Shown here piece by piece: positions 1 to 38,310 of a stretch of DNA of 41,142 nucleotides. Both the position numbers and the translations under genes were made by a program. The notes below the pieces were generated by a model, which made no database searches, was not told the DNA's origin, and worked only from the letters and a program-made list of their open reading frames with translations. Each line of letters begins with the position of its first letter. The first letter of the stretch is position 1. The DNA comes from a phage: the sequence record PZ019083.1; one strand, written 5' to 3'.

Positions 1-561
1 ATGCAAGGGGATTCTATGAAGCTGAAACTTAAGCAGCCATCGCCAGAGGTGGTGCAAGCTGCACATGAAGAAGCTGTTAGCGCAAACCGTCGCCGTAAAC
101 GACCGCGCGGTAAACAGAGCCTTTATCAATCATCCCGTAATTCCGCCGCATTGTGGGACCCGGACTATTGTGACGCGTTAATCGAGTTCTTCGACCGCAC
201 GTCATGGGAACTTGTACCTACGTCCAAGGGCGACGAACGCCCGTTGATTCAGGATAAGCCACCATCGCTGGCCCGCTTCGCCTTACACATCGGCGTAACT
301 ATCCCAATTATTAAGCTATGGCTGCGTGAGATTCCCGCATTTGCGGAAGCCTATGAGACAGCACAGGCGCTGGAAGAGGCATACTTCACTGAGACGGGGG
401 CGGCGGGCATCTCTGCTACATTTGCTGCCGCGAAACTGGGCCTTAGCAAAGAGAAACCGGTTGAGTCCACCGAAGAAACAGCACCGACCGAGATTGTTTT
501 CAGTGTTGCAGAGCCTGTAGGTAAAATCGTAACAACTAACATGGGCGAGGTAGAGGAATGA
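1..561 (+). CDS. terminase small subunit (may be 5'-incomplete at window edge; alternative ATG at 16)
   Basis: Basic N-terminus, 4-nt overlap with the downstream large terminase gene; position and size typical. Confidence 0.55.
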   Translation: MQGDSMKLKLKQPSPEVVQAAHEEAVSANRRRKRPRGKQSLYQSSRNSAALWDPDYCDALIEFFDRTSWELVPTSKGDERPLIQDKPPSLARFALHIGVTIPIIKLWLREIPAFAEAYETAQALEEAYFTETGAAGISATFAAAKLGLSKEKPVESTEETAPTEIVFSVAEPVGKIVTTNMGEVEE

Positions 562-3323: not shown

Positions 3324-3345
3324 AGCCCCGAAAGGGGCTTTCTTA
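3324..3345 (+). terminator. intrinsic terminator (AGCCCC-GAAA-GGGGCT + T-run)
   Basis: Perfect GC hairpin followed by T-rich tract after portal stop. Confidence 0.6.
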
Positions 3346-3349
3346 TAGT

Positions 3350-4426
3350 ATGCTATTAACTTTAGCACCACAGGGTTTAACTATGAGCTTACTTACATCC
3401 CTAATCAGCCACCAGATATGGCTGCAACGAACCGCATCCGGCGAAGTGAAAGACCTCGCACCGTTCATTCAGGAAATGCGGGACGAAATCAAACGGCAGG
3501 TGCTGTTATTCGGTGACGACGGGCGAAGCACCGCGCGGCTGAATAAACTGTTACGCGACCTTGAAGAAGCGCTAACCGGACTTACCGGCGACTGGCAAAC
3601 AAAGCTGACAGAAGACCTCAAGGAGCTGGCGGCGTATGAGGCTGAGTGGAACGTAAAGACGCTGGCCACCAACGTAGATGCGGAATTTGTCACGCCTACC
3701 GCCGAACAGGTGTGGGCTGCCGCTGAGTTTCAACCCTTATCATTAAGCGACAAGCCTGTTGATTTCACTAAGCTGATGTCGGGATGGGGTGAAACCGAAG
3801 TAGCACGTCTCGTAACCGGCGTTAAGATGGGCTTTGTTCAGGGTAAGACAACACGGCAGATTGTTACAGAAGTAGTCGGTAAAGGTGGGCTGGCTGACGT
3901 ATCAGAGAAATATGCGGCTACAGTAATCCGCACCGCGCTGTCCCACGTATCCAACGAAGCCCGTAACGAGACGTACCGCCAGAACGACGACATCATCGAG
4001 AAGTACGAGTGGGTGTCGACGCTGGACAGCCGTACCAGTACGATTTGTAGGGCCAGAGACGGAATGACGTGGGAAATCGGTAAGGGGCCGATGCCGCCAG
4101 CACATCCGAATTGCCGGAGTACCACTGCACCAGTAATCAGTTCGGAGTTCGACTTCCTCGATAAGGGAGCAAAACGAGCAGCTAAGGGTGCGGACGGCGG
4201 TATGCAGGTAAGTGCAGACACCACCTATTATGAGTTCCTGAAACAACAACCGGCATGGTTTCAGGACCAGGCTCTAGGCCCTGTTCGCGGTAAGATTTTC
4301 CGTAACAGCGGTATATCGCCGGAAGAGTTTCGCGTAATATCTGTAGATGGTTTCGGGAATCCGCTCACGCTTAAGCAGATGGCGGAACTCGATAAACGTG
4401 TTGCTGATTATCTGAAAGGGGAATAA
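3350..4426 (+). CDS. head morphogenesis / minor head protein (Mu F or SPP1 gp7-like)
   Basis: 358 aa ORF after portal; C-terminal Cys/His-containing region; start could instead be ATG 3371. Confidence 0.55.
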   Translation: MLLTLAPQGLTMSLLTSLISHQIWLQRTASGEVKDLAPFIQEMRDEIKRQVLLFGDDGRSTARLNKLLRDLEEALTGLTGDWQTKLTEDLKELAAYEAEWNVKTLATNVDAEFVTPTAEQVWAAAEFQPLSLSDKPVDFTKLMSGWGETEVARLVTGVKMGFVQGKTTRQIVTEVVGKGGLADVSEKYAATVIRTALSHVSNEARNETYRQNDDIIEKYEWVSTLDSRTSTICRARDGMTWEIGKGPMPPAHPNCRSTTAPVISSEFDFLDKGAKRAAKGADGGMQVSADTTYYEFLKQQPAWFQDQALGPVRGKIFRNSGISPEEFRVISVDGFGNPLTLKQMAELDKRVADYLKGE

Positions 4427-4887
4427 TGATGGGCTTTTTCAAAGTAACTGATGTACCGTCACGCCGCGTAGTACAGTACGCCCGTGTGTCTGGTTCCGGC
4501 GAGAACGTAACCTACGTTGAAGATGAAAGTGTACTAGGTACACCCGTAGACGAGATGCCCTACGCAGACAAGACAGGTATCGCGCTCTCTGCCGCTGGTA
4601 TGCTTTATGAGATTCCGTATCTGGCTGACGCAGGCGACGTGTACTTCTCGGCGCAACCGCAGGACGCTGAACTGGCAGACGGCAGCGCAACTATCACTGT
4701 CGAAGTTAAGGCGGGCAAAGCGCCGTATGCTCTTACCTGGTACAAAGACGGAAAGGAAGTTGTAAACGCACCTGAAGAGGCCTTGTCTCTGACGGTTAAC
4801 GCAGTAGGTGAATACTTCGTTAAAGTCACCGATGCCAATGGTGTGGAGACGGTAAGCAAAGCGGCGAAGGTCACTAAGCCAGAATAA
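4426..4887 (+). CDS. hypothetical virion-associated protein with Ig-like C-terminal region
   Basis: ATGA start-stop overlap with upstream gene; C-terminal beta-rich repeat-like segment. Confidence 0.4.
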   Translation: MMGFFKVTDVPSRRVVQYARVSGSGENVTYVEDESVLGTPVDEMPYADKTGIALSAAGMLYEIPYLADAGDVYFSAQPQDAELADGSATITVEVKAGKAPYALTWYKDGKEVVNAPEEALSLTVNAVGEYFVKVTDANGVETVSKAAKVTKPE

Positions 4888-4892
4888 ACTGA

Positions 4893-4913
4893 AGCCCCGA
4901 AAGGGGCTTTTTA
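4893..4913 (+). terminator. intrinsic terminator
   Basis: AAGCCCC-GAAA-GGGGCTT hairpin followed by TTTTT. Confidence 0.6.
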
Positions 4914-4963
4914 GTGCCTGTGATTATTCCAGTTATTCCACTCAATTGTAAATGTTGGAATAA

Positions 4964-4977
4964 ACTATTCGAATAGT
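4964..4977. promoter_or_regulatory. 14-bp perfect palindrome ACTATTCGAATAGT abutting a TTGACT -35-like hexamer (4977-4982)
   Basis: Perfect dyad; the half-site ACTATTC recurs in promoters elsewhere in the window. Confidence 0.4.
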
Positions 4978-5024
4978 TGACTTTTCACTGAAAATATGAT
5001 AAGCTCCACCTGAGCTTGTGAAGT

Positions 5025-5171
5025 ATGAACAAGCGACCGCGGCGCGGGCAGGTAACGGAGCGGGACGTAAGTCCTGAGTGTAGTTACGCTGACGCGTTCG
5101 GAAGGGCCATACTCTATTGCTTGTGTAAAAAAGTAACGGGTTTACTGAGATTACGCCGTTTCTATGTTTAA
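5025..5171 (+). CDS. possible 48-aa basic Cys-containing mini-protein (or noncoding RNA)
   Basis: ATG-initiated ORF between promoter-like site and hairpin 5187-5206; weak RBS. Confidence 0.2.
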   Translation: MNKRPRRGQVTERDVSPECSYADAFGRAILYCLCKKVTGLLRLRRFYV

Positions 5172-5230
5172 ATGATAAGGACTAGCGCCCCGCTTTAAGG
5201 CGGGGCTTTACTTATCGAGAAAGGGGAAAC

Positions 5231-5617
5231 ATGAATCTTAAAGCAACTGTCGTAGCCGGAGCATGTTTCGTTGTCCTGGCCTACGCACACAGCATTTATC
5301 AGTATCGCAGCGGCTGGAACGAAGGCCGGGCGAATCTCGTTTCGCAGCAACAGCAGAAAGCACAGGCTGAGTTAGCGAAGAAAACACAACGGCAGCAGCA
5401 GGATGAATCAAAGGCCGCAGCCGCTGACAACGAAGGCAAGACGAAATCAGAGGTGATTACACGTGAAGTCGTTAAGTACATTAAAACGCCTGGTCGCAGC
5501 GTGTGCACTTTCGACGATGCTCGCGTCCTGCTCAAGTCCCGCGCTGTTGCCAACGCCAATTCCATCCCCGGATACGACAATGATGCAGCCGCCGTGCAAG
5601 TTGGCCCCGCCAAGTAG
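5231..5617 (+). CDS. i-spanin (Rz-like inner membrane spanin)
   Basis: N-terminal TM helix, Q/A/K-rich coiled-coil region, strong RBS AAAGGGGA; contains start of overlapped lipoprotein gene. Confidence 0.6.
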   Translation: MNLKATVVAGACFVVLAYAHSIYQYRSGWNEGRANLVSQQQQKAQAELAKKTQRQQQDESKAAAADNEGKTKSEVITREVVKYIKTPGRSVCTFDDARVLLKSRAVANANSIPGYDNDAAAVQVGPAK

Positions 5618-5726
5618 TGATGCTGACGAGGATTTGGCTATCGACGTTCAGAACGCAGAATGCGCCCGCCAGAATCGTCTGAAGGTATTCCGGTTGCAGG
5701 ATTACGTGAGGAATATTCTGGAATAG
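5463..5726 (+). CDS. o-spanin (Rz1-like outer membrane lipoprotein), +1 frame overlapping i-spanin 3' end
   Basis: GTG start, signal peptide with lipobox LASC (Cys23), proline-rich mature region with extra Cys. Confidence 0.55.
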   Translation: MKSLSTLKRLVAACALSTMLASCSSPALLPTPIPSPDTTMMQPPCKLAPPSSDADEDLAIDVQNAECARQNRLKVFRLQDYVRNILE

Positions 5727-5805
5727 TTGCCTTGTATGTTGGAATAATTTATTCTTGACATGTAAATCCGGGTGGCCCGGGTTCCAACGTCCAGGGGACA
5801 TACTG

Positions 5806-6432
5806 ATGAGCGAAGAAGTGAAAGACGAAACTATCGAACAACAAGAGACTAAGACCACGTTTACCAAAGAGGAAGTTGACGCGCTGGTATCAGGTCTTAA
5901 AGCTAACAACGAGAAACTCTTGTCTGAAAAGAAAGCTGCTGCCGCTGCCGCTAAAGAAGCCGCAGATGCGAAGCTGAAAGCCGAACAGGAACGCGCAAAA
6001 CAGAACGGCGAACTTGAGGCATTCGAGAAAACGTTACGTAGTCAGTATGAGCCAGTACTAGCCGAGAAAGACGGTAAGATTAACAAAATGGCTGAGCGTA
6101 TCCTCGGCGCAGAACGTAAATCAGTTATCAGCCAGTTGTCTGGCATGTTGATTGATGAGAGCGCAGCGGATATCATCGCTATGATGGTCAAGACCGAATT
6201 CGACGGCGATGACGTTGTGACCAAGTTCACTGGTGCAGATGGTAACGTCATCACCACCGACGCAGAGCAATTTAAAAAGTATCTGCGTGAGCACAAAGCA
6301 TTCTCGCATCTGATTAAAGCAGATGCAGCAACCGGCGGCGGGGCTTCCGGTAACAAAAATTCTACTGGCGGGGCCGGTGGTACGGACGTAATCCAGCAAA
6401 AACTTAACGCCAAATACGGCAAACGAGGATAA
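5806..6432 (+). CDS. head scaffolding protein
   Basis: Acidic, K/E/A-rich coiled-coil protein immediately upstream of major capsid gene. Confidence 0.55.
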   Translation: MSEEVKDETIEQQETKTTFTKEEVDALVSGLKANNEKLLSEKKAAAAAAKEAADAKLKAEQERAKQNGELEAFEKTLRSQYEPVLAEKDGKINKMAERILGAERKSVISQLSGMLIDESAADIIAMMVKTEFDGDDVVTKFTGADGNVITTDAEQFKKYLREHKAFSHLIKADAATGGGASGNKNSTGGAGGTDVIQQKLNAKYGKRG

Positions 6433-6438
6433 CAGAAT

Positions 6439-7407
6439 ATGTCTCTGTCAGATATGAAGGTTTATAACGACGATATCGTCGGTACCACTATCGAACTGCT
6501 TGGTCAGAAAACTGACCAGTTTAACGCGGCCTCTGGTGGGGCAATTGTACTGTCTACCGCTTCATGGCGCGGTGACTTCTCCCGTGAGTCTTTCTTTAAC
6601 CAGATTGCCTCAGCTAAACGCCGCGTTGACCGTTACGCGGCTATCGCCTCTCAGGCCGCTACCGCTCTGACTCAGGGAGAGCATGTAGGCGTTAAAGTCG
6701 CTGGCGGCTTCGGTCCAGTACTGTTCGAGCCTGCGCAAATGACCTGGCTGAACGAAGACCCGGCAAGCGCGATTCGTGCTATTTCAGAAGGCTTCTCTGA
6801 CGCACTGTTGGCAGACCAGCTTAACACTGCTGTTGGTGCTGCGGTTGCCGCGGTATCCGGTCAGACCGCACTGGTTAACGACGTATCTGCGTCCGCGGGC
6901 CTGTCCCTGAACGTGCTGAACAACAGCCACGCTAAATTCGGCGACCAGTCTCAGTTGCTGATTACCGACATCATGACTGGCGCGGCTTACCACACTCTGG
7001 TAGACAAAGCGCTGACCAACGCAAACCAGCTGTTCGTTGCCGGTAACGTTATGGTTGTCGATGTTCTCGGTAAGCGTTACGTAATCTCCGACATCCCTGC
7101 GCTGTACGAAGCTGGTACTCCGAACAAGACTAAGGTCCTGTCCGTAGTTGCAAACGGCATCATCGTTGACAATGCTTCTGACATTATCAGCAACATTGAC
7201 ACCAGCAACGGTAACACCCGCATCCAGACCACCTGGCAGGCGGACTACAGCTTCGGCCTGAAACTGAAAGGCTATAGCTGGGATGCTACCAACGGCGGTA
7301 AATCTCCGCTGGATGCAGAACTGTTCACCGCATCCAACTGGGACAAAGCTGTTGCCGAGAACAAGCACACCCTCGGTACTCTGGCAATCGCTGACGCAGA
7401 CCTGTAA
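6439..7407 (+). CDS. major capsid protein
   Basis: 322 aa ORF with strong RBS, after scaffold, followed by strong terminator. Confidence 0.7.
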   Translation: MSLSDMKVYNDDIVGTTIELLGQKTDQFNAASGGAIVLSTASWRGDFSRESFFNQIASAKRRVDRYAAIASQAATALTQGEHVGVKVAGGFGPVLFEPAQMTWLNEDPASAIRAISEGFSDALLADQLNTAVGAAVAAVSGQTALVNDVSASAGLSLNVLNNSHAKFGDQSQLLITDIMTGAAYHTLVDKALTNANQLFVAGNVMVVDVLGKRYVISDIPALYEAGTPNKTKVLSVVANGIIVDNASDIISNIDTSNGNTRIQTTWQADYSFGLKLKGYSWDATNGGKSPLDAELFTASNWDKAVAENKHTLGTLAIADADL

Positions 7408-7426
7408 CACGGTTGATGGCAGAAAC

Positions 7427-7449
7427 AAAGGGGCTTCGGCCCCTTTTTA
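7427..7449 (+). terminator. intrinsic terminator
   Basis: AAGGGGC-TTCG-GCCCCTT hairpin + T-run after capsid gene. Confidence 0.65.
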
Positions 7450-7464
7450 CTAGGAGAAATTAAA

Positions 7465-7632
7465 GTGGAAATTAAATACGTACCAATGCCAATCACCATC
7501 GAGCAGAAGCGCGAATATAACCGTCAGGGGTTCCGCGTGGTAGATGCGCGTTTCGCACCAGAAGGTGCTGTGGTAGAATCGACTAAAGAAGAGACGCCAC
7601 GCCGCCAGCGTCGGGCGAAATCAGAGGAATAA
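7465..7632 (+). CDS. small hypothetical protein (55 aa, GTG start)
   Basis: AGGAG RBS 6 nt upstream of GTG; not in ORF track because under 60 aa. Confidence 0.35.
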   Translation: MEIKYVPMPITIEQKREYNRQGFRVVDARFAPEGAVVESTKEETPRRQRRAKSEE

Positions 7633-11102: not shown

Positions 11103-11126
11103 AAGGCCCCGAAAGGGGCCTTTTTC
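11103..11126. terminator. bidirectional intrinsic terminator
   Basis: AAGGCCCC-GAAA-GGGGCCTT flanked by A-run and T-run, between convergent operons. Confidence 0.6.
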
Positions 11127-11357
11127 TTACTCATCAATGTTACTCCTGTAGTCCCGTAACTTTTCCAGACTTTCAATTGCTTCCGCTAAGTCTGTTCCTG
11201 TGTCCTTGTGCCCGCGAAGGCCCAAGCACAATAGCTTCTTCAATGCGTGTTGCAACGCAGGGTCACGGATGTCGAAAGCACGGAGAACATCGTAAACGTC
11301 TACTGTCATGGTGCTGCCGTGTGTATTTGTCATTGTGCGGTTGTATTTTGAAGTCAT
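11127..11357 (-). CDS. hypothetical protein, DUF3310-like
   Basis: 76 aa; motif ALQHALKKLLCLGLRGHKDTGTDLAEAIESL resembles DUF3310 phage proteins (from memory); ATGA coupling to upstream gene. Confidence 0.4.
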   Translation of the reverse strand: MTSKYNRTMTNTHGSTMTVDVYDVLRAFDIRDPALQHALKKLLCLGLRGHKDTGTDLAEAIESLEKLRDYRSNIDE

Positions 11358-12484
11358 CCCAGCATCTCCGGTGAAATAGTTAAACGTGCGACCTCGCCGT
11401 ATTCGGCGCTATAAGTAATTACATTTGCACTACGGCCCGACATCCAACCGCCTCTGGATGCGTAGGCGTCTTTGGCCGCTAAGGTGCGGTGTTGCTCAAC
11501 AATCATGTTACGGCTTTCTACAATCTTTTGGTGGTGCAGGTGGCCTACGTGGGCGTAGCTATAAACGCTCTCGCCGAACGCTTTGCGGAACTTGGCGATC
11601 ATAACCGGTTCAATAGCGTCGAATCGTGCTTTATGCCCGTGGTGAAAGAACAACGTCGTTTTGCCGTGTTGCACCATCTTGTAAACGTCCGGCGACGTGT
11701 CGACGATCACTCGGCTGTCTTTTGAGTATAAAGTCGTGAACATTTCCGCCAACCACACAGACCCTACAGGGTCGTGATTTCCTTGCACGATAAGCAAGCG
11801 AACATTTTTGTGCTTAACGAGCGCCATATCAACAACACGGCGGACCATACGAATCATGTAACGTACAAGTTTCTGGTAGCGCGTATCTGCATCCAACACA
11901 TGGCGCGACTCAGGCGTAACGGCGTCCAGGCTATCGAAGTGCGCGAAGTCGCCCAGCAGGTTAATAACTCCAGTTCCCGCGTCTGGTGCTTTCTGAAACG
12001 CGGCATCAAACCACCGAGAAAACAGGTCTTCAGCAATCTTCATATCCCAGTCGTCGCCGCTCTCGTCGGCCCAGGCCAGCATGCCGAGATGGAAATCAGA
12101 TACCGTGTAAAGATTGAGTAGCTTGTCATCACGTTTGGCTCGAGTCGCTTTAACAGGGACAACCGGCGTAATCTCTGACTTCATGCCTTCAATTACGGCT
12201 TTCATCAACTCGACCTGACGTTCGGCGTCAGTATCGGTCTTAACCCATTGCAGTTTAGTGTTGCCAAACTCGTCCACTAGTGACGACGTTCCTTTAATCT
12301 TGTAGCCGTCTGGCACAAGGTGACTAACGTCACGTCCGTGGCCTACACCTTTCTTAGCCAGCTTCGCTTTACGGATACGAATAACGCGGTCCGAGATGCC
12401 GTATTTACGGGCGATGTCTACATTCTTCATCCCGGCGTTCAATTCTTCCTGTAACTGTTCGTCGGTTATTTTCTTATGGGCCAT
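11354..12484 (-). CDS. HTH-containing calcineurin-like metallophosphoesterase
   Basis: Motifs SDFHLG, GDFAHFD, GNHD, HHGH, GHLHH; N-terminal HTH-like segment; start at ATG 12484 (MAHKK) with GAGGAAG RBS. Confidence 0.6.
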   Translation of the reverse strand: MAHKKITDEQLQEELNAGMKNVDIARKYGISDRVIRIRKAKLAKKGVGHGRDVSHLVPDGYKIKGTSSLVDEFGNTKLQWVKTDTDAERQVELMKAVIEGMKSEITPVVPVKATRAKRDDKLLNLYTVSDFHLGMLAWADESGDDWDMKIAEDLFSRWFDAAFQKAPDAGTGVINLLGDFAHFDSLDAVTPESRHVLDADTRYQKLVRYMIRMVRRVVDMALVKHKNVRLLIVQGNHDPVGSVWLAEMFTTLYSKDSRVIVDTSPDVYKMVQHGKTTLFFHHGHKARFDAIEPVMIAKFRKAFGESVYSYAHVGHLHHQKIVESRNMIVEQHRTLAAKDAYASRGGWMSGRSANVITYSAEYGEVARLTISPEMLG

Positions 12485-12522
12485 GCTTACTTCCTCGTGT
12501 TTAGGATTTGTCTTATAGTAGC

Positions 12523-12714
12523 CTACTTCTCTTTCACGTTCGAGTTGCAAGCCCAGATTAAAATAAATACCCACGGCAGCAGAACCCAGCCAAGAAACAG
12601 GTTAGCCGTGAATATCGCTAACTTCGCTTTATGGTTACGGAAGTACGCAACCAGGAAAGGCGCGAAATAAGCGAGAAGTGCAAACAGAATCAAGGAAACT
12701 GGTAAACTGGACAT
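12523..12714 (-). CDS. superinfection-immunity-like small membrane protein (Imm_superinfect family-like)
   Basis: Two TM helices; motif YFAPFLVAYFRNHKAKLAIFTANLFLGWVLLPWVFILIWA; AAGGGG RBS before ATG 12714. Confidence 0.5.
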   Translation of the reverse strand: MSSLPVSLILFALLAYFAPFLVAYFRNHKAKLAIFTANLFLGWVLLPWVFILIWACNSNVKEK

Positions 12715-30891: not shown

Positions 30892-31107
30892 ATGCAACCA
30901 TCTGAACTAGGCATTCGTGTAGAACAACGCCGTAAAGAACTTGGCATCTCCCAGCGCCGTCTGGCTGTCCTGACCGGGGTTTCCCAGGGCGCGATTAACC
31001 AGCTTGCGCTCGGGGTAACTCAGGACGTCCGCCCGGCGACGCTGTTTAAACTGGCGGAAGTGCTGCAAGTAGACGCCAAGTGGCTGGCGTTAGGTGAAGG
31101 GGCTTAA
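30892..31107 (+). CDS. Cro/CI-type (XRE family) HTH transcriptional regulator
   Basis: Motif GISQRRLAVLTGVSQGAINQLALG; 71 aa. Confidence 0.65.
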   Translation: MQPSELGIRVEQRRKELGISQRRLAVLTGVSQGAINQLALGVTQDVRPATLFKLAEVLQVDAKWLALGEGA

Positions 31108-37273: not shown

Positions 37274-37582
37274 TTGGATAAATTTACTGAAACAGTGACG
37301 GGGTGGCTTCTCGCTGCCGCACTGGTCGGTGGATTGGTCGGACTAAGACAACATAAAAAGTCTATATCCGGGCCGATTGACGGACTGGTATTTCTTCTAA
37401 CCGGCTTTGCGTGTGCCATTTTCGGTGCACCTCTTGCCGCTCAATGGTTCGGTATTACCGGTGAGCGTGAGATAGCTGGCCTCGGATTCATCATTGCCAT
37501 TCTCTGGATGCCTATCTATTCCCGCCTTTCTGGCATCGTATCGGGTGGAGATATTTCCCGTCCGGGAGGACCTCATGACTGA
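37274..37582 (+). CDS. holin (3 predicted TM segments)
   Basis: Small protein with three hydrophobic helices and charged C-terminus, TTG start after GGAGGA. Confidence 0.55.
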   Translation: MDKFTETVTGWLLAAALVGGLVGLRQHKKSISGPIDGLVFLLTGFACAIFGAPLAAQWFGITGEREIAGLGFIIAILWMPIYSRLSGIVSGGDISRPGGPHD

Positions 37583-37847
37583 GCTATTCTGGTTTGTCGT
37601 AATGCTTTCAATGGGCGCTTCGTCCCTGTTCAACGTGTATAATGAGCGTGTGGACGACGGGCTGTTCGGGCGTGTTCTCTATATCCTGACCGCTATTGTC
37701 TGCGCCGCCGGGTGTATCCACCTGTTACAGGGCGGCATGTCGCCTACGTTGCCCGAGACATTAATCACATTAGTTGCGCTGCGTCAGATTCGTCAGGCGT
37801 GGCTGTCGTACGGAGGACATAAGCGTGTCTCGAAACATTTCAGATAA
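37575..37847 (+). CDS. second holin / antiholin-like membrane protein (2 TM)
   Basis: GGGAGGA RBS; two hydrophobic helices; overlaps neighbours. Confidence 0.45.
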   Translation: MTELFWFVVMLSMGASSLFNVYNERVDDGLFGRVLYILTAIVCAAGCIHLLQGGMSPTLPETLITLVALRQIRQAWLSYGGHKRVSKHFR

Positions 37848-38310
37848 TGGATTGCATTTTACCTCTGCATTTGAGGGATTCCGCGGAACTGCGTATCGTG
37901 CTACCCCAAACGAGAAGTACCTTACTATTGGGTACGGACATTACGGGCCGGACGTAACCCCGGGTAAGACCATCACACCGGGGCAGGGCTTGCTGTTACT
38001 GAATCGCGATATGGCTAAGGCTGTAGCTGCGGTTGACGCGGCAGCACACCATTCGCTGACACAGGCACAGTTTGATGCAGTGTGCGACCTGGTCTATAAC
38101 GCGGGTGCTGGTGTGATTGCAGCTACTACAGGCACGGGTAAGGCGCTGCGTTCTGGTGATATTGCAACGCTGCGGGCTAAGCTGGCGCTGTTTATCAACC
38201 AGAACGGCAAACCGTTACTCGGCCTGCGTCGCCGTACAGCCGGACGCCTTGCACTGTTCGACGGTAAACCGTGGCAGGAGGCTGAGGCTATTGGGAGGGC
38301 TGTTAAATGA
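37825..38310 (+). CDS. endolysin, lysozyme-like (glycoside hydrolase, T4/lambda-type fold)
   Basis: Motif FEGFRGTAYRATPNEKYLTIGYGH with catalytic Glu context; GTG start after GGAGGA. Confidence 0.65.
   Translation: MSRNISDNGLHFTSAFEGFRGTAYRATPNEKYLTIGYGHYGPDVTPGKTITPGQGLLLLNRDMAKAVAAVDAAAHHSLTQAQFDAVCDLVYNAGAGVIAATTGTGKALRSGDIATLRAKLALFINQNGKPLLGLRRRTAGRLALFDGKPWQEAEAIGRAVK

Follow-up and report, generated by a model that had tools for sequence, protein, structure and literature searches.

The window analysed here is the whole of a 41,142-nucleotide stretch of phage DNA (sequence record PZ019083.1), a complete and circularly permuted Kagunavirus (Guernseyvirinae) coliphage genome whose linear map has been opened at the small terminase gene. 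With a nucleotide identity of about 94% to the nearest records, the phage is an isolate-level variant within a subfamily that is much used in phage therapy work. Two overlapping genes at positions 5231 to 5726 had been read in the initial annotation as an overlapped spanin pair, and both open reading frames are indeed found at these coordinates. The pair had been placed between head morphogenesis and scaffold genes, a position that can be refined: the Mu-F-like head morphogenesis gene (3350-4426) is followed by a Hoc-like decoration gene (4426-4887), the immediate upstream neighbour of the i-spanin slot, and the scaffold gene (ATG at 5807, end at 6432) lies downstream of the pair. The synteny check proposed along with this reading turned out in its favour, as the order portal, Mu-F, Hoc, spanin and scaffold gene is the same in 52/52 loci.

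The i-spanin gene (plus strand, ATG at 5231, stop at 5617) is preceded by the ribosome-binding site AGGGGA (5222-5227) and encodes a protein of 128 amino acids; its assignment draws on the open reading frame and its translation, on hydropathy and on the match to PHROG 2536, 'Rz-like spanin' (E = 2.2e-54). The N-terminal transmembrane helix previously proposed for this protein is borne out by its hydropathy profile, in which the Kyte-Doolittle 15-residue mean reaches a maximum of 2.17 at residues 5-19, is negative afterwards and reveals no second hydrophobic segment. The helix covers approximately residues 4-22 (nucleotides ~5240-5296) and leaves the protein with a single transmembrane segment and an otherwise periplasmic topology. 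The sequence of the membrane segment is variable, its hydrophobicity is kept in 24/24 aligned homologues, and the periplasmic residue Cys92 is invariant in the family alignment. When compared by tblastn with K1H gp06, which is annotated as 'Rz-like spanin', the i-spanin is 92% identical over all 128 residues. A single-sequence AlphaFold model of low confidence, especially beyond residue ~60 (mean pLDDT 61, below 50 after residue ~79), places helices at residues 3-84 and 94-107, and the coiled coil of the initial annotation stays a putative one. For the Jersey i-spanin family, a pair of helices joined by a linker that contains beta structure has been predicted (Kongari et al. 2018, PMC6139136). 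A PDB sequence search with the i-spanin gave no match and hence no solved homologue, and the Pfam Rz/Rz1 families match neither spanin at E <= 0.1, the only Pfam matches to the two proteins (Nucleoside_tran, DUF4148) lying far below threshold. Since there is neither a Pfam Rz/Rz1 match nor a solved homologue, the spanin assignment rests on topology signals and on family curation.

The o-spanin gene (5463-5726, plus strand) is read in the +1 frame, starts with GTG and specifies a precursor of 87 amino acids; lipobox, PHROG matches and codon-position diversity all speak for it. Its ribosome-binding site, GAGG (5450-5453, plus strand), precedes the GTG codon by 9 nt and falls within the coding sequence of the i-spanin; the two genes overlap over 155 nt (5463-5617), which is an overlapped architecture. 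Residues 1-22 form the predicted signal peptide; the N-terminus MKSLSTLKRLVAACALSTMLAS, directly followed by Cys, fits the PROSITE PS51257-type lipoprotein rule, with the pattern ACALSTMLASC and a lipobox LASC that ends in Cys23 (codon 5529-5531) and is followed by Ser-Ser. Because the +2 residue is Ser and not Asp, the lipoprotein is expected to be sorted to the outer membrane. The mature protein contains nine proline residues among its 65 amino acids, and its proline-rich stretch comprises residues 26-51; the description of the product as a proline-rich, GTG-started lipoprotein of the +1 frame with the lipobox LASC is thus upheld in each of its parts. All relatives share Cys45 and Cys67, so that, to judge from the translations, periplasmic cysteines available for disulfides are present in both proteins (Cys92 in the i-spanin). 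No hydrophobic segment follows the signal peptide, and the protein is therefore not a unimolecular spanin of the T1 gp11 type.

The o-spanin likewise matches 'Rz-like spanin' families, PHROG 5672 at 3.3e-28 and PHROG 1267 at 3.8e-18, and the tblastn comparison with K1H yields 91% identity over 57 aligned residues (31-87). Many GenBank records, and PHROG 5672 as well, carry a shortened o-spanin of 47-48 amino acids without the lipoprotein signal; the Shelanagig annotation (Center for Phage Technology) sets the o-spanin start at the position homologous to that used here. Comparative evidence supports the 87-amino-acid, GTG-started form as the probable gene product. In 47/47 distinct homologous loci, the +1 frame has retained a signal peptide of hydrophobic character together with a Cys of the lipobox type, even though the signal sequences themselves differ. 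The variants of the lipobox found in the relatives are LASC, LSAC, MSAC, LTSC, LSGC, LNGC, ITGC, LFGC and YGC, with LASC common to the window phage and several relatives. The o-spanin ribosome-binding site (GAGG/GGAGG) is invariant in all loci of the same geometry, and the homologous site carries GTG as start codon, or ATG in three sequences. In the relatives, position +2 is occupied by S, Q or A, and never by D.

The diversity of codon positions, computed on 34 distinct nucleotide sequences of the same geometry, follows the frame that is expected in each part of the locus: where only the i-spanin is encoded it peaks at position 3 of the i-frame codons (0.249 versus 0.117 and 0.094), and where only the o-spanin is encoded it peaks at position 3 of the o-frame codons (0.262 versus 0.096 and 0.037). 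Judged by these sequence comparisons, both overlapping reading frames are real and under purifying selection. The same patterns bear on the idea that the 128-amino-acid protein is a head assembly or virion component and that the +1 open reading frame is fortuitous, an idea which has the position of the pair between the head morphogenesis and decoration genes and the scaffold gene as its sole support. We regard it as exceedingly improbable: the +1 open reading frame displays a third-position diversity pattern of its own beyond the overlap, and in every relative the lipobox, the ribosome-binding site and the start of this frame are preserved. In fEg-Eco19, an HNH gene splits the spanin pair, and the lipoprotein open reading frame, parted from its partner, has regained a newly formed signal peptide. 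Moreover, the 128-amino-acid protein possesses a membrane anchor, and the homology check by which a spanin was to be told from a virion component matched it to spanin PHROG families only.

The remaining lysis genes are located near the other end of the linear map. A holin gene (37274-37582, plus strand) and a second holin or antiholin gene (37575-37847, plus strand), whose open reading frames and starts were checked and for which the K1H annotation was consulted, have products that match PHROG 2359 and 2508; they are followed by the gene of a soluble lysozyme-type endolysin (GTG at 37825, end at 38310, plus strand; PF00959, E = 7.4e-27). As had been claimed, this cassette at 37.3-38.3 kb has no adjoining spanin. 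Scans for open reading frames and lipoproteins found no other credible spanin candidate in the window, and none after the holin-holin-endolysin cassette. It should be noted that the genome-wide lipoprotein scan considers the first lipobox-like match of each open reading frame only, so that the true o-spanin was missed by it (VAAC precedes LASC); its remaining hits are antisense or internal frames.

One element of the initial annotation has to be corrected, namely the separation of 'about 32 kb' between the spanin genes and the lysis cassette. While endolysin and spanin genes lie 31.5 kb apart on the linear map, the route through the genome ends runs downstream from the endolysin stop (38310) to the i-spanin start in 8,062 nt, both genes being on the same strand. 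Contigs of relatives connect the region corresponding to ~40.5 kb of the window to window position 1-3, and the circular K1H record has its origin inside the small terminase gene. The larger separation is an artefact of the linear map, and spanins and holin-endolysin cassette are about 8 kb apart on the circular one. Only small open reading frames and the terminase, portal, Mu-F-like and Hoc-like genes are found between endolysin and i-spanin, and the order holin, endolysin, portal, Mu-F, Hoc and spanin is directly visible in relatives. The spanin genes are not adjacent to the endolysin gene, and the phage consequently lacks a contiguous lambda-type holin-endolysin-spanin cassette; the lysis cassette heads the same co-directional gene block to which the spanins belong. 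For permuted phage genomes, the distance between a gene and a cassette should, in our view, be taken on the circular map.

The region between the Hoc-like gene and the i-spanin is rich in features that may be regulatory, all of them on the plus strand. Directly 3' of the Hoc-like gene, a terminator-like hairpin, AAGCCCCGAAAGGGGCTT followed by TTTAG (4892-4914), would close the upstream head-gene unit; the scan output assigns this hairpin to the minus strand, and the plus-strand T-run was read from the sequence. A palindrome, GGAATAAACTATTC (4957-4970), comes next and precedes what we infer, by reading the sequence, to be a sigma-70-like promoter with a -35 element TTGACT (4977-4982), a 17-nt spacer and an extended -10 element TGaTAAGCT (4997-5005). 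Three sequence types (TTGACT/TAGACT/TGGACT, 17 nt, TGnTAAGCT/TACGCT/TAACCT) retain the key positions of this site, and the palindrome occurs ~245-273 nt before the i-spanin ATG, at a fixed distance in most loci. A second copy, GGAATAATTTATTC (5741-5754, plus strand), stands between the o-spanin and scaffold genes at a distance of 16 nt from the o-spanin stop, a spacing that recurs in 44/52 loci; the pattern GAATA-N(1-5)-TATTC has only these two matches in the window. At this second copy, the stretch GGAATAATTTATTCTT is nearly invariant in eight relatives, and GAATAATTTATTCTT is identical in 8/8, with the first G alone differing (Hafnia phage TS33). A candidate for the protein that would bind the GGAATAAnnTATTC site is the 71-amino-acid HTH protein encoded at 30892-31107.

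The promoter-like site is followed by a conserved leader of about 200 nt (5012-5213) with a 5' hairpin, a long nested hairpin (~5037-5101), the conserved motif TTCGGAAGGGCC (5097-5108) and, 24 nt before the i-spanin start codon, a strong intrinsic terminator (stem 5187-5206, then TTTACTT). Across 31 sequences, the 19 pairs of the leader stems are paired in 98.6% of the cases, as compared with 31-45% when the partners are slid, and six pairs have changed on both sides; 0/500 shuffles reach the observed values. The terminator stem is kept by compensatory changes (C-G to G-C, C-G to U-A, G-C to A-U). Rfam has no match to the whole window at gathering thresholds or to positions 4850-5850 at E <= 1, and the leader would consequently represent an undescribed RNA element. 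The window contains no tRNA genes. An open reading frame of 48 amino acids within the leader (5025-5171) is unlikely to be coding, as its ATG is deleted in Jerseyvirus relatives and a 1-nt difference in an A-run alters its C-terminus relative to all close relatives (36 amino acids there). Neither the TTCGGAAGGGCC motif nor the palindrome has further copies in the window, for instance near the lysis cassette, and a regulatory element common to both halves of the lysis equipment is therefore unsupported.

Two intrinsic terminators and a promoter-like site thus stand between the spanins and the upstream head genes, and there is no terminator between the spanins and the scaffold and major capsid genes. 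A scan for sigma-70 promoters from the terminator at 5206 to the scaffold start at 5807 found none; an ordinary promoter at the downstream palindrome was considered and rejected, because no -10 element accompanies the TTGACA at 5755 (the sequence there is CGGGTT). As terminators are present on the upstream side only, any co-transcription of the spanins would be with the scaffold/capsid unit. From this arrangement of signals, the spanin pair most probably opens the scaffold/major-capsid transcription unit as its first cistron, and it may plausibly be expressed along with the scaffold and capsid genes. One might instead suppose, as the initial annotation implied, that the spanins are transcribed by read-through with the upstream head genes, from terminase to Hoc-like, and that the hairpins and the promoter-like site are functionless. 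All genes concerned are co-directional, and similar hairpin terminators are present across the late block (3324, 4892, 11103), so that partial read-through may be the rule. We nonetheless consider this rather unlikely in view of the two terminators (4892-4914 and 5187-5206) that separate the Hoc-like gene from the i-spanin, the compensatory changes that keep the stem of the second, and the retention of the key promoter positions in three diverged sequence types.

A more far-reaching proposal builds on the spanin-first operon favoured here. Palindromic operator, promoter, covarying leader and terminator could together constitute a control region resembling lambda pR'-tR', in which expression of the spanins and the capsid genes would depend on antitermination, with a protein or a cis-acting RNA of the put type as the agent. 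The proposal is tentative, and we would sooner doubt it than rely on it; if true, it would mean that, in a virulent siphovirus, the final function of lysis is coupled to the expression of the capsid genes. The one RNA-seq study found for a Kagunavirus, on K1B4, sorts the genes into no more than three coarse classes of timing, with lysozyme and capsid genes falling together into one broad class, and does not mention the spanins. The conclusion of the initial annotation that the spanins are expressed with the late head genes rather than with the endolysin is a conjecture. Late-gene control in the Guernseyvirinae does not appear to have been described so far, and the conserved promoter-like site, structured leader and terminator that directly precede the spanin, scaffold and capsid genes may merit a separate look.

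The slot between the Hoc-like and the scaffold gene also deserves attention as a site of insertion. Relatives carry unrelated inserts in it (RusA, a hydrolase, a 'DNA pol III beta' moron, an HNH gene), and one could picture the pair as one more moron of this hotspot within the head module, which protects the infected cell by superinfection exclusion or receptor masking in the manner of T5 Llp or Cor-type lipoproteins and has no role in lysis. The promoter-like site upstream of the pair and the repeated palindromes that bracket it are compatible with such a unit, and an experimental lysis phenotype for the pair was not found in the literature; nor was an experimental test of any Jersey-family spanin, the sole wet-lab study found on Jersey-type lysis, a paper on the lysis system of phage S10, having left the spanins out. 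We judge a purely protective role to be very improbable all the same. A type II inner-membrane protein combined with an overlapped, proline-rich lipoprotein and conserved periplasmic cysteines is the defining signature of spanins. The pair is universally conserved in the subfamily (Guernseyvirinae) and in Dhillonvirus, unlike the neighbouring inserts. Its GC content is the same as that of the flanks and gives no compositional sign of a foreign origin, which makes a recent acquisition unlikely. Finally, the genome encodes a canonical holin and endolysin, yet no other spanin; in Gram-negative hosts, the combination of a canonical holin with a soluble endolysin is said (reportedly by Berry et al. 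in 2012) normally to need one.

We therefore retain the assignment of the pair to lysis and envision its function as follows. The N-terminal helix of the 128-amino-acid protein would insert into the inner membrane and expose a mostly helical domain in the periplasm, while the 87-amino-acid protein would undergo export, receive its acyl group at Cys23, be processed by signal peptidase II and be directed to the outer membrane. On the model of lambda Rz/Rz1, both partners would bind each other via their periplasmic C-terminal parts, and disulfide-linked complexes would cross the periplasm through the murein meshwork. Once the holin has triggered and the endolysin has destroyed the murein, these complexes would fuse the inner and the outer membrane as the last step of lysis. 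Complex formation, disulfides and membrane fusion are all projected from the lambda paradigm and the family assignment.

Taken together, we estimate with a probability of about 0.9 that the pair is a genuine two-component spanin of Kagunavirus, a member of the Jersey i-/o-spanin family and probably the first cistron of the scaffold/major-capsid unit. That an overlapped spanin pair outside the lysis cassette can be recognised by a reader from the sequence alone is worth recording; the significance of the finding is otherwise small.

Compared with known systems, the pair is, as far as its predicted topology goes, a functional analogue of lambda Rz/Rz1 and not a sequence homologue. Both systems join a type II inner-membrane protein to a proline-rich outer-membrane lipoprotein encoded in the +1 frame, and both have periplasmic cysteines; however, there is no detectable homology between them, the o-spanin gene of the window is overlapped rather than fully embedded, and the pair stands apart from the endolysin gene. 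P2 lysB/lysC, the prototype of the overlapped architecture (Kongari et al. 2018, Fig. 1, PMC6139136), shares that architecture with the pair studied here but is part of the lysis cassette and falls into an unrelated sequence family. T4 pseT.3/pseT.2 provide a known precedent for a split set of lysis genes (Kongari et al. 2018, PMC6139136); these genes have a separated architecture and belong to an unrelated family, and the T4 holin and endolysin genes are also mutually unlinked.

The closest parallel is the Jersey family itself, for which Kongari et al. (2018, PMC6139136) list 27 members, including K1G, K1H (gp06/gp07), K1ind1-3, EP23, HK578, Jersey, SETP3 and SE2, of the overlapped type and with an overlap of 155 bp in phage Jersey. 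Sequence homology, overlapped type, length of the overlap and position between head-decoration and scaffold genes are all as in the window, and there is no substantial difference. The records of K1H, L AB-2017, Shelanagig, SE2, St162 and EP23 likewise annotate spanins at this position. The i-spanin of Escherichia phage Schulenberg (MK931438) is 90.6% identical to that of the window and shows no relevant difference, and the genome note on this phage (PMC6763661) already describes the spanins as genetically separate from the holin/antiholin and endolysin genes. The gene family, the 155-bp overlap and the location apart from the genes for holin and endolysin have thus all been published already, and the overlapped spanin pair described here is a correct but ordinary finding in an arrangement that is not new.

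The 128-amino acid i-spanin is encoded on the plus strand by an ATG-started gene (5231-5617), which is overlapped over 155 nt by the GTG-started gene (5463-5726, plus strand, +1 frame) for the 87-amino acid o-spanin. A single N-terminal hydrophobic segment is present in the i-spanin (maximal Kyte-Doolittle mean over 15 residues of 2.17, residues 5-19), the remainder of the protein is polar, and Cys residues occupy positions 12 and 92. A single-sequence AlphaFold model of this protein, which is of low confidence beyond residue ~60, contains helices at residues 3-84 and 94-107 with a break near the invariant Cys; the coiled coil of the initial annotation is accordingly a putative feature. The N-terminus of the o-spanin, MKSLSTLKRLVAACALSTMLAS followed by CSS, satisfies the PROSITE PS51257-type lipoprotein rule (lipobox LASC, Cys23), and the mature protein contains nine Pro among its 65 residues and two additional Cys residues. 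A ribosome-binding site (GAGG) is located 9 nt 5' of the GTG codon, and the sequence AGGGGA precedes the i-spanin ATG. By topology and family assignment, the 128-amino acid protein is predicted to be a type II inner-membrane protein and the 87-amino acid protein an outer-membrane lipoprotein. The overlapped spanin pair is confirmed, and the initial annotation had described its reading frames accurately with respect to coordinates, N-terminal membrane segment, GTG start, +1 frame, LASC motif and richness in Pro.

The window phage belongs to the genus Kagunavirus (Guernseyvirinae) and shares ~94% nucleotide identity with ULINTec2, BUCT789, K1H and others. Both proteins match PHROG families of the 'Rz-like spanin' type (2536, 2.2e-54; 5672, 3.3e-28; 1267, 3.8e-18); neither has a match in Pfam, and they thus possess no sequence homology to Rz/Rz1 of lambda. 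Spanins are annotated at the same location in K1H (gp06 and gp07, the latter noted as 'overlapping gene'), L AB-2017, Golestan, SE2, St162 and the Dhillonvirus EP23, and also in the Center for Phage Technology annotation of Shelanagig, where the o-spanin start is at the homologous position. Kongari et al. (2018; PMC6139136) defined matching 'Jersey' families of i- and o-spanins with 27 members (including K1G, K1H, K1ind1-3, EP23, HK578, JL1 and SO-1), and the genome announcement of Escherichia phage Schulenberg (PMC6763661), whose i-spanin is 90.6% identical to that of the window, states that the spanins are genetically separate from the holin/antiholin and endolysin genes. Neither the gene family nor its arrangement in the genome is thus new, and the significance of the finding is low. 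Our literature search found no experimental test for any member of the Jersey-type spanin families.

Many public records list the o-spanin as an ORF of 47-52 amino acids that starts at an internal ATG (window ~5580), among them those of L AB-2017 (L_20), SE2 (gp37), EP23 (gp06) and TS33. This form carries neither a signal peptide nor a lipobox, and PHROG 5672 (47 positions) rests on it. Conservation supports the 87-amino acid GTG-started form. We compared 52 loci of GenBank phages and IMG/VR that carry homologous gene pairs; these yield 47 distinct pairs of proteins, each of which retains, in the +1 frame, a lipobox-type Cys and a signal peptide that is hydrophobic. The signal sequences and lipoboxes themselves vary (LASC, LSAC, MSAC, LTSC, LSGC, LNGC, ITGC, LFGC), the ribosome-binding site GAGG/GGAGG is invariant, and translation starts at the homologous codon, a GTG that is replaced by ATG in three sequences. 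The position after the acylated Cys is occupied by S, Q or A; D is absent there, which agrees with sorting to the outer membrane. Among 24 aligned i-spanin homologues, Cys92 is invariant, and the membrane segment varies in sequence while retaining its hydrophobicity. Among 34 distinct nucleotide sequences that share one geometry, diversity peaks at codon position 3 of the i frame 5' of the overlap (0.249 vs 0.117 and 0.094) and at codon position 3 of the o frame 3' of it (0.262 vs 0.096 and 0.037); inside the overlap, the i frame dominates the pattern. The sequence comparison indicates that the overlapping +1-frame arrangement exceeds chance. The view that the 128-amino acid protein is a head component overlapped by a fortuitous reading frame is contradicted by the conservation of lipobox, signal peptide, ribosome-binding site and start codon in the +1 frame, and by the o-frame diversity peak beyond the overlap.

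Upstream of the spanin genes lie those for a Mu-F-like head morphogenesis protein (3350-4426, after the portal gene) and a Hoc-like decoration protein (4426-4887); downstream, the ATG-started scaffold gene (5807-6432) is followed by that of the major capsid protein (6439-7407). All 52 loci share this placement within the head gene cluster, with portal, Mu-F, Hoc, spanin and scaffold in this order on a single strand. Holin (37274-37582), second holin/antiholin (37575-37847) and a soluble lysozyme-type endolysin with a GTG start (37825-38310) form the lysis cassette, behind which ORF, profile and lipoprotein scans of the window revealed no spanin-like gene.

The Hoc-like-to-scaffold interval is an insertion hotspot (window 4888-5230; slots in the relatives' loci L003, L004, L007, L009 and L010), with a distance from the Hoc-like gene to the spanins of ~300 to ~1950 nt; inserts flanking the pair encode an antisense RusA-like resolvase, a hydrolase, a 'DNA pol III beta' moron and small ORFs. 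A mosaic boundary is located exactly at the scaffold start codon (window 5806-7607): numerous relatives, ~87% identical elsewhere, can be aligned as far as 5806 and then only in a 72%-identical patch (6022-6357), with similarity returning near 7607, and the window thus carries a scaffold/major-capsid allele different from theirs. The hotspot character of the slot would suit a moron encoding a protective membrane protein and a lipoprotein, but the pair is universally conserved, bears the full spanin signature and equals its flanks in GC content, and no other spanin candidate accompanies the canonical holin and endolysin of this genome.

The initial annotation read the pair as one half of a lysis cassette split by about 32 kb, with the spanins expressed together with late head genes and not with the endolysin. 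This interpretation is partly supported: the separation from the holin-endolysin genes stands, whereas the distance is an artefact of the linear map. The window is a complete genome (ends 1 and 41142) in circular permutation, which begins at the small terminase gene: the contigs of relatives join window ~40.5 kb directly to window 1-3, and in K1H, deposited as a circular record, this gene spans the origin. Distances should be read on a circle. Through the ends, 8,062 nt separate the endolysin stop from the i-spanin start downstream of it on the same strand, and the order holin, endolysin, portal, Mu-F, Hoc and spanin is directly visible in three relatives. Lysis cassette and spanins consequently share one co-directional block, which starts at ~35.7 kb, passes through the ends and reaches ~22.8 kb, with minus-strand genes at 11127-12574 as its sole interruption. 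The only RNA-seq study of a Kagunavirus that our search found assigned lysozyme and capsid genes to one broad temporal class and does not mention spanins; the proposed contrast between expression with head genes and expression with the endolysin accordingly finds no support. We found neither a terminator nor a recognisable sigma-70 promoter in the stretch from the o-spanin stop to the scaffold start. We infer that the spanin genes are the first cistrons of a scaffold/capsid unit, and transcription into this unit would have to pass a terminator.

This strong intrinsic terminator (plus strand; GCCCCGC-TTTAAG-GCGGGGC, stem 5187-5206, then TTTACTT to 5213) was detected by a terminator scan and its stem ends 24 nt 5' of the i-spanin ATG. 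Further upstream on the plus strand, a hairpin with a T-run (4892-4914) directly follows the Hoc-like gene, and a sigma-70-like promoter can be read at 4977-5005 (TTGACT, 17 nt, TGaTAAGCT), whose key positions are kept in three diverged sequence types. Alignments and folding delineate a conserved plus-strand leader of ~200 nt between promoter-like site and terminator, comprising a 5' hairpin, a nested hairpin and the conserved stretch TTCGGAAGGGCC. Pairing in the nested hairpin and the terminator stem is maintained by compensatory changes. Across 31 sequences, whose kinship inflates the counts, 19 leader/terminator pairs are 98.6% paired vs 31-45% with slid partners, six pairs are changed on both sides, and none of 500 shuffles matches the observed values. 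A 48-amino acid ORF inside the leader (5025-5171, plus strand) is annotated in some relatives as a hypothetical protein of 36-39 amino acids. This ORF, which lacks its ATG through a deletion in Jerseyvirus relatives and whose C-terminus is altered in the window vs all close relatives by one additional A in the run at 5128-5133, is probably non-coding. Near-identical plus-strand terminator hairpins of the form (A)AG(G)CCCCGAAAGGGG(C)CT(T) with a T-run stand at three places between co-directional late genes, behind the portal gene (3324-3339), the Hoc-like gene (4892-4909) and, as a bidirectional version, a tail gene (11103-11122).

Two palindromes of the form GGAATAA(N2-3)TATTC, each then followed by TTGAC, bracket the spanin cassette on the plus strand; the window has no further copies. 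The upstream copy, GGAATAAACTATTC (4957-4970), is situated between the Hoc-like terminator hairpin and the promoter-like site, ~245-273 nt before the i-spanin ATG in most loci; the downstream copy (5741-5754) precedes the scaffold start and lies 16 nt past the o-spanin stop in 44 of the 52 loci. The latter is near-invariant in eight relatives, with the Hafnia phage TS33 differing in the first base only, and no -10 element follows it. The palindrome is possibly a regulator binding site. Neither leader nor palindromes have a match in Rfam, and we found no description of these elements in the literature; the conserved promoter-leader-terminator and the bracketing palindromes may merit a separate look. 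Directly 5' of the scaffold start, two conserved small hairpins are present on the plus strand (5768-5799): CCGGGTGGCCCGG (5768-5780), with the compensatory variant GCGGGTGGCCCGC in Dhillonvirus EP23, and GTCC-AGG-GGAC (5789-5799), with the ribosome-binding site of the scaffold gene inside it.

By analogy with the established model for lambda Rz/Rz1 (summarised in PMC6139136), i- and o-spanin would bind each other via their periplasmic C-terminal parts, disulfide-linked complexes would span the periplasm, and these would fuse inner and outer membranes once the endolysin has removed the murein. For the Jersey i-spanin family, Kongari et al. predicted two helices with a beta-containing linker; they placed the Jersey families in the overlapped class, and the 155-bp overlap in phage Jersey is identical in length to that of the window pair (PMC6139136). 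The promoter-leader-terminator resembles pR'-6S RNA-tR' of lambda in its layout, and passage through the terminator might involve antitermination. In Escherichia virus fEg-Eco19 (OL539727; locus L007, 2501-3565), an HNH homing endonuclease gene sits where the spanin genes overlap and splits the two ORFs; the i-spanin is cut to 119 amino acids, and the o-spanin has an unrelated new signal peptide, MRLPILLLVIWCYGC, and lipobox (…LLLVIWCYGC) in front of a conserved mature part. This is a natural transition from overlapped to separated spanin genes, like that of T5/Shivani in Kongari et al. (2018).
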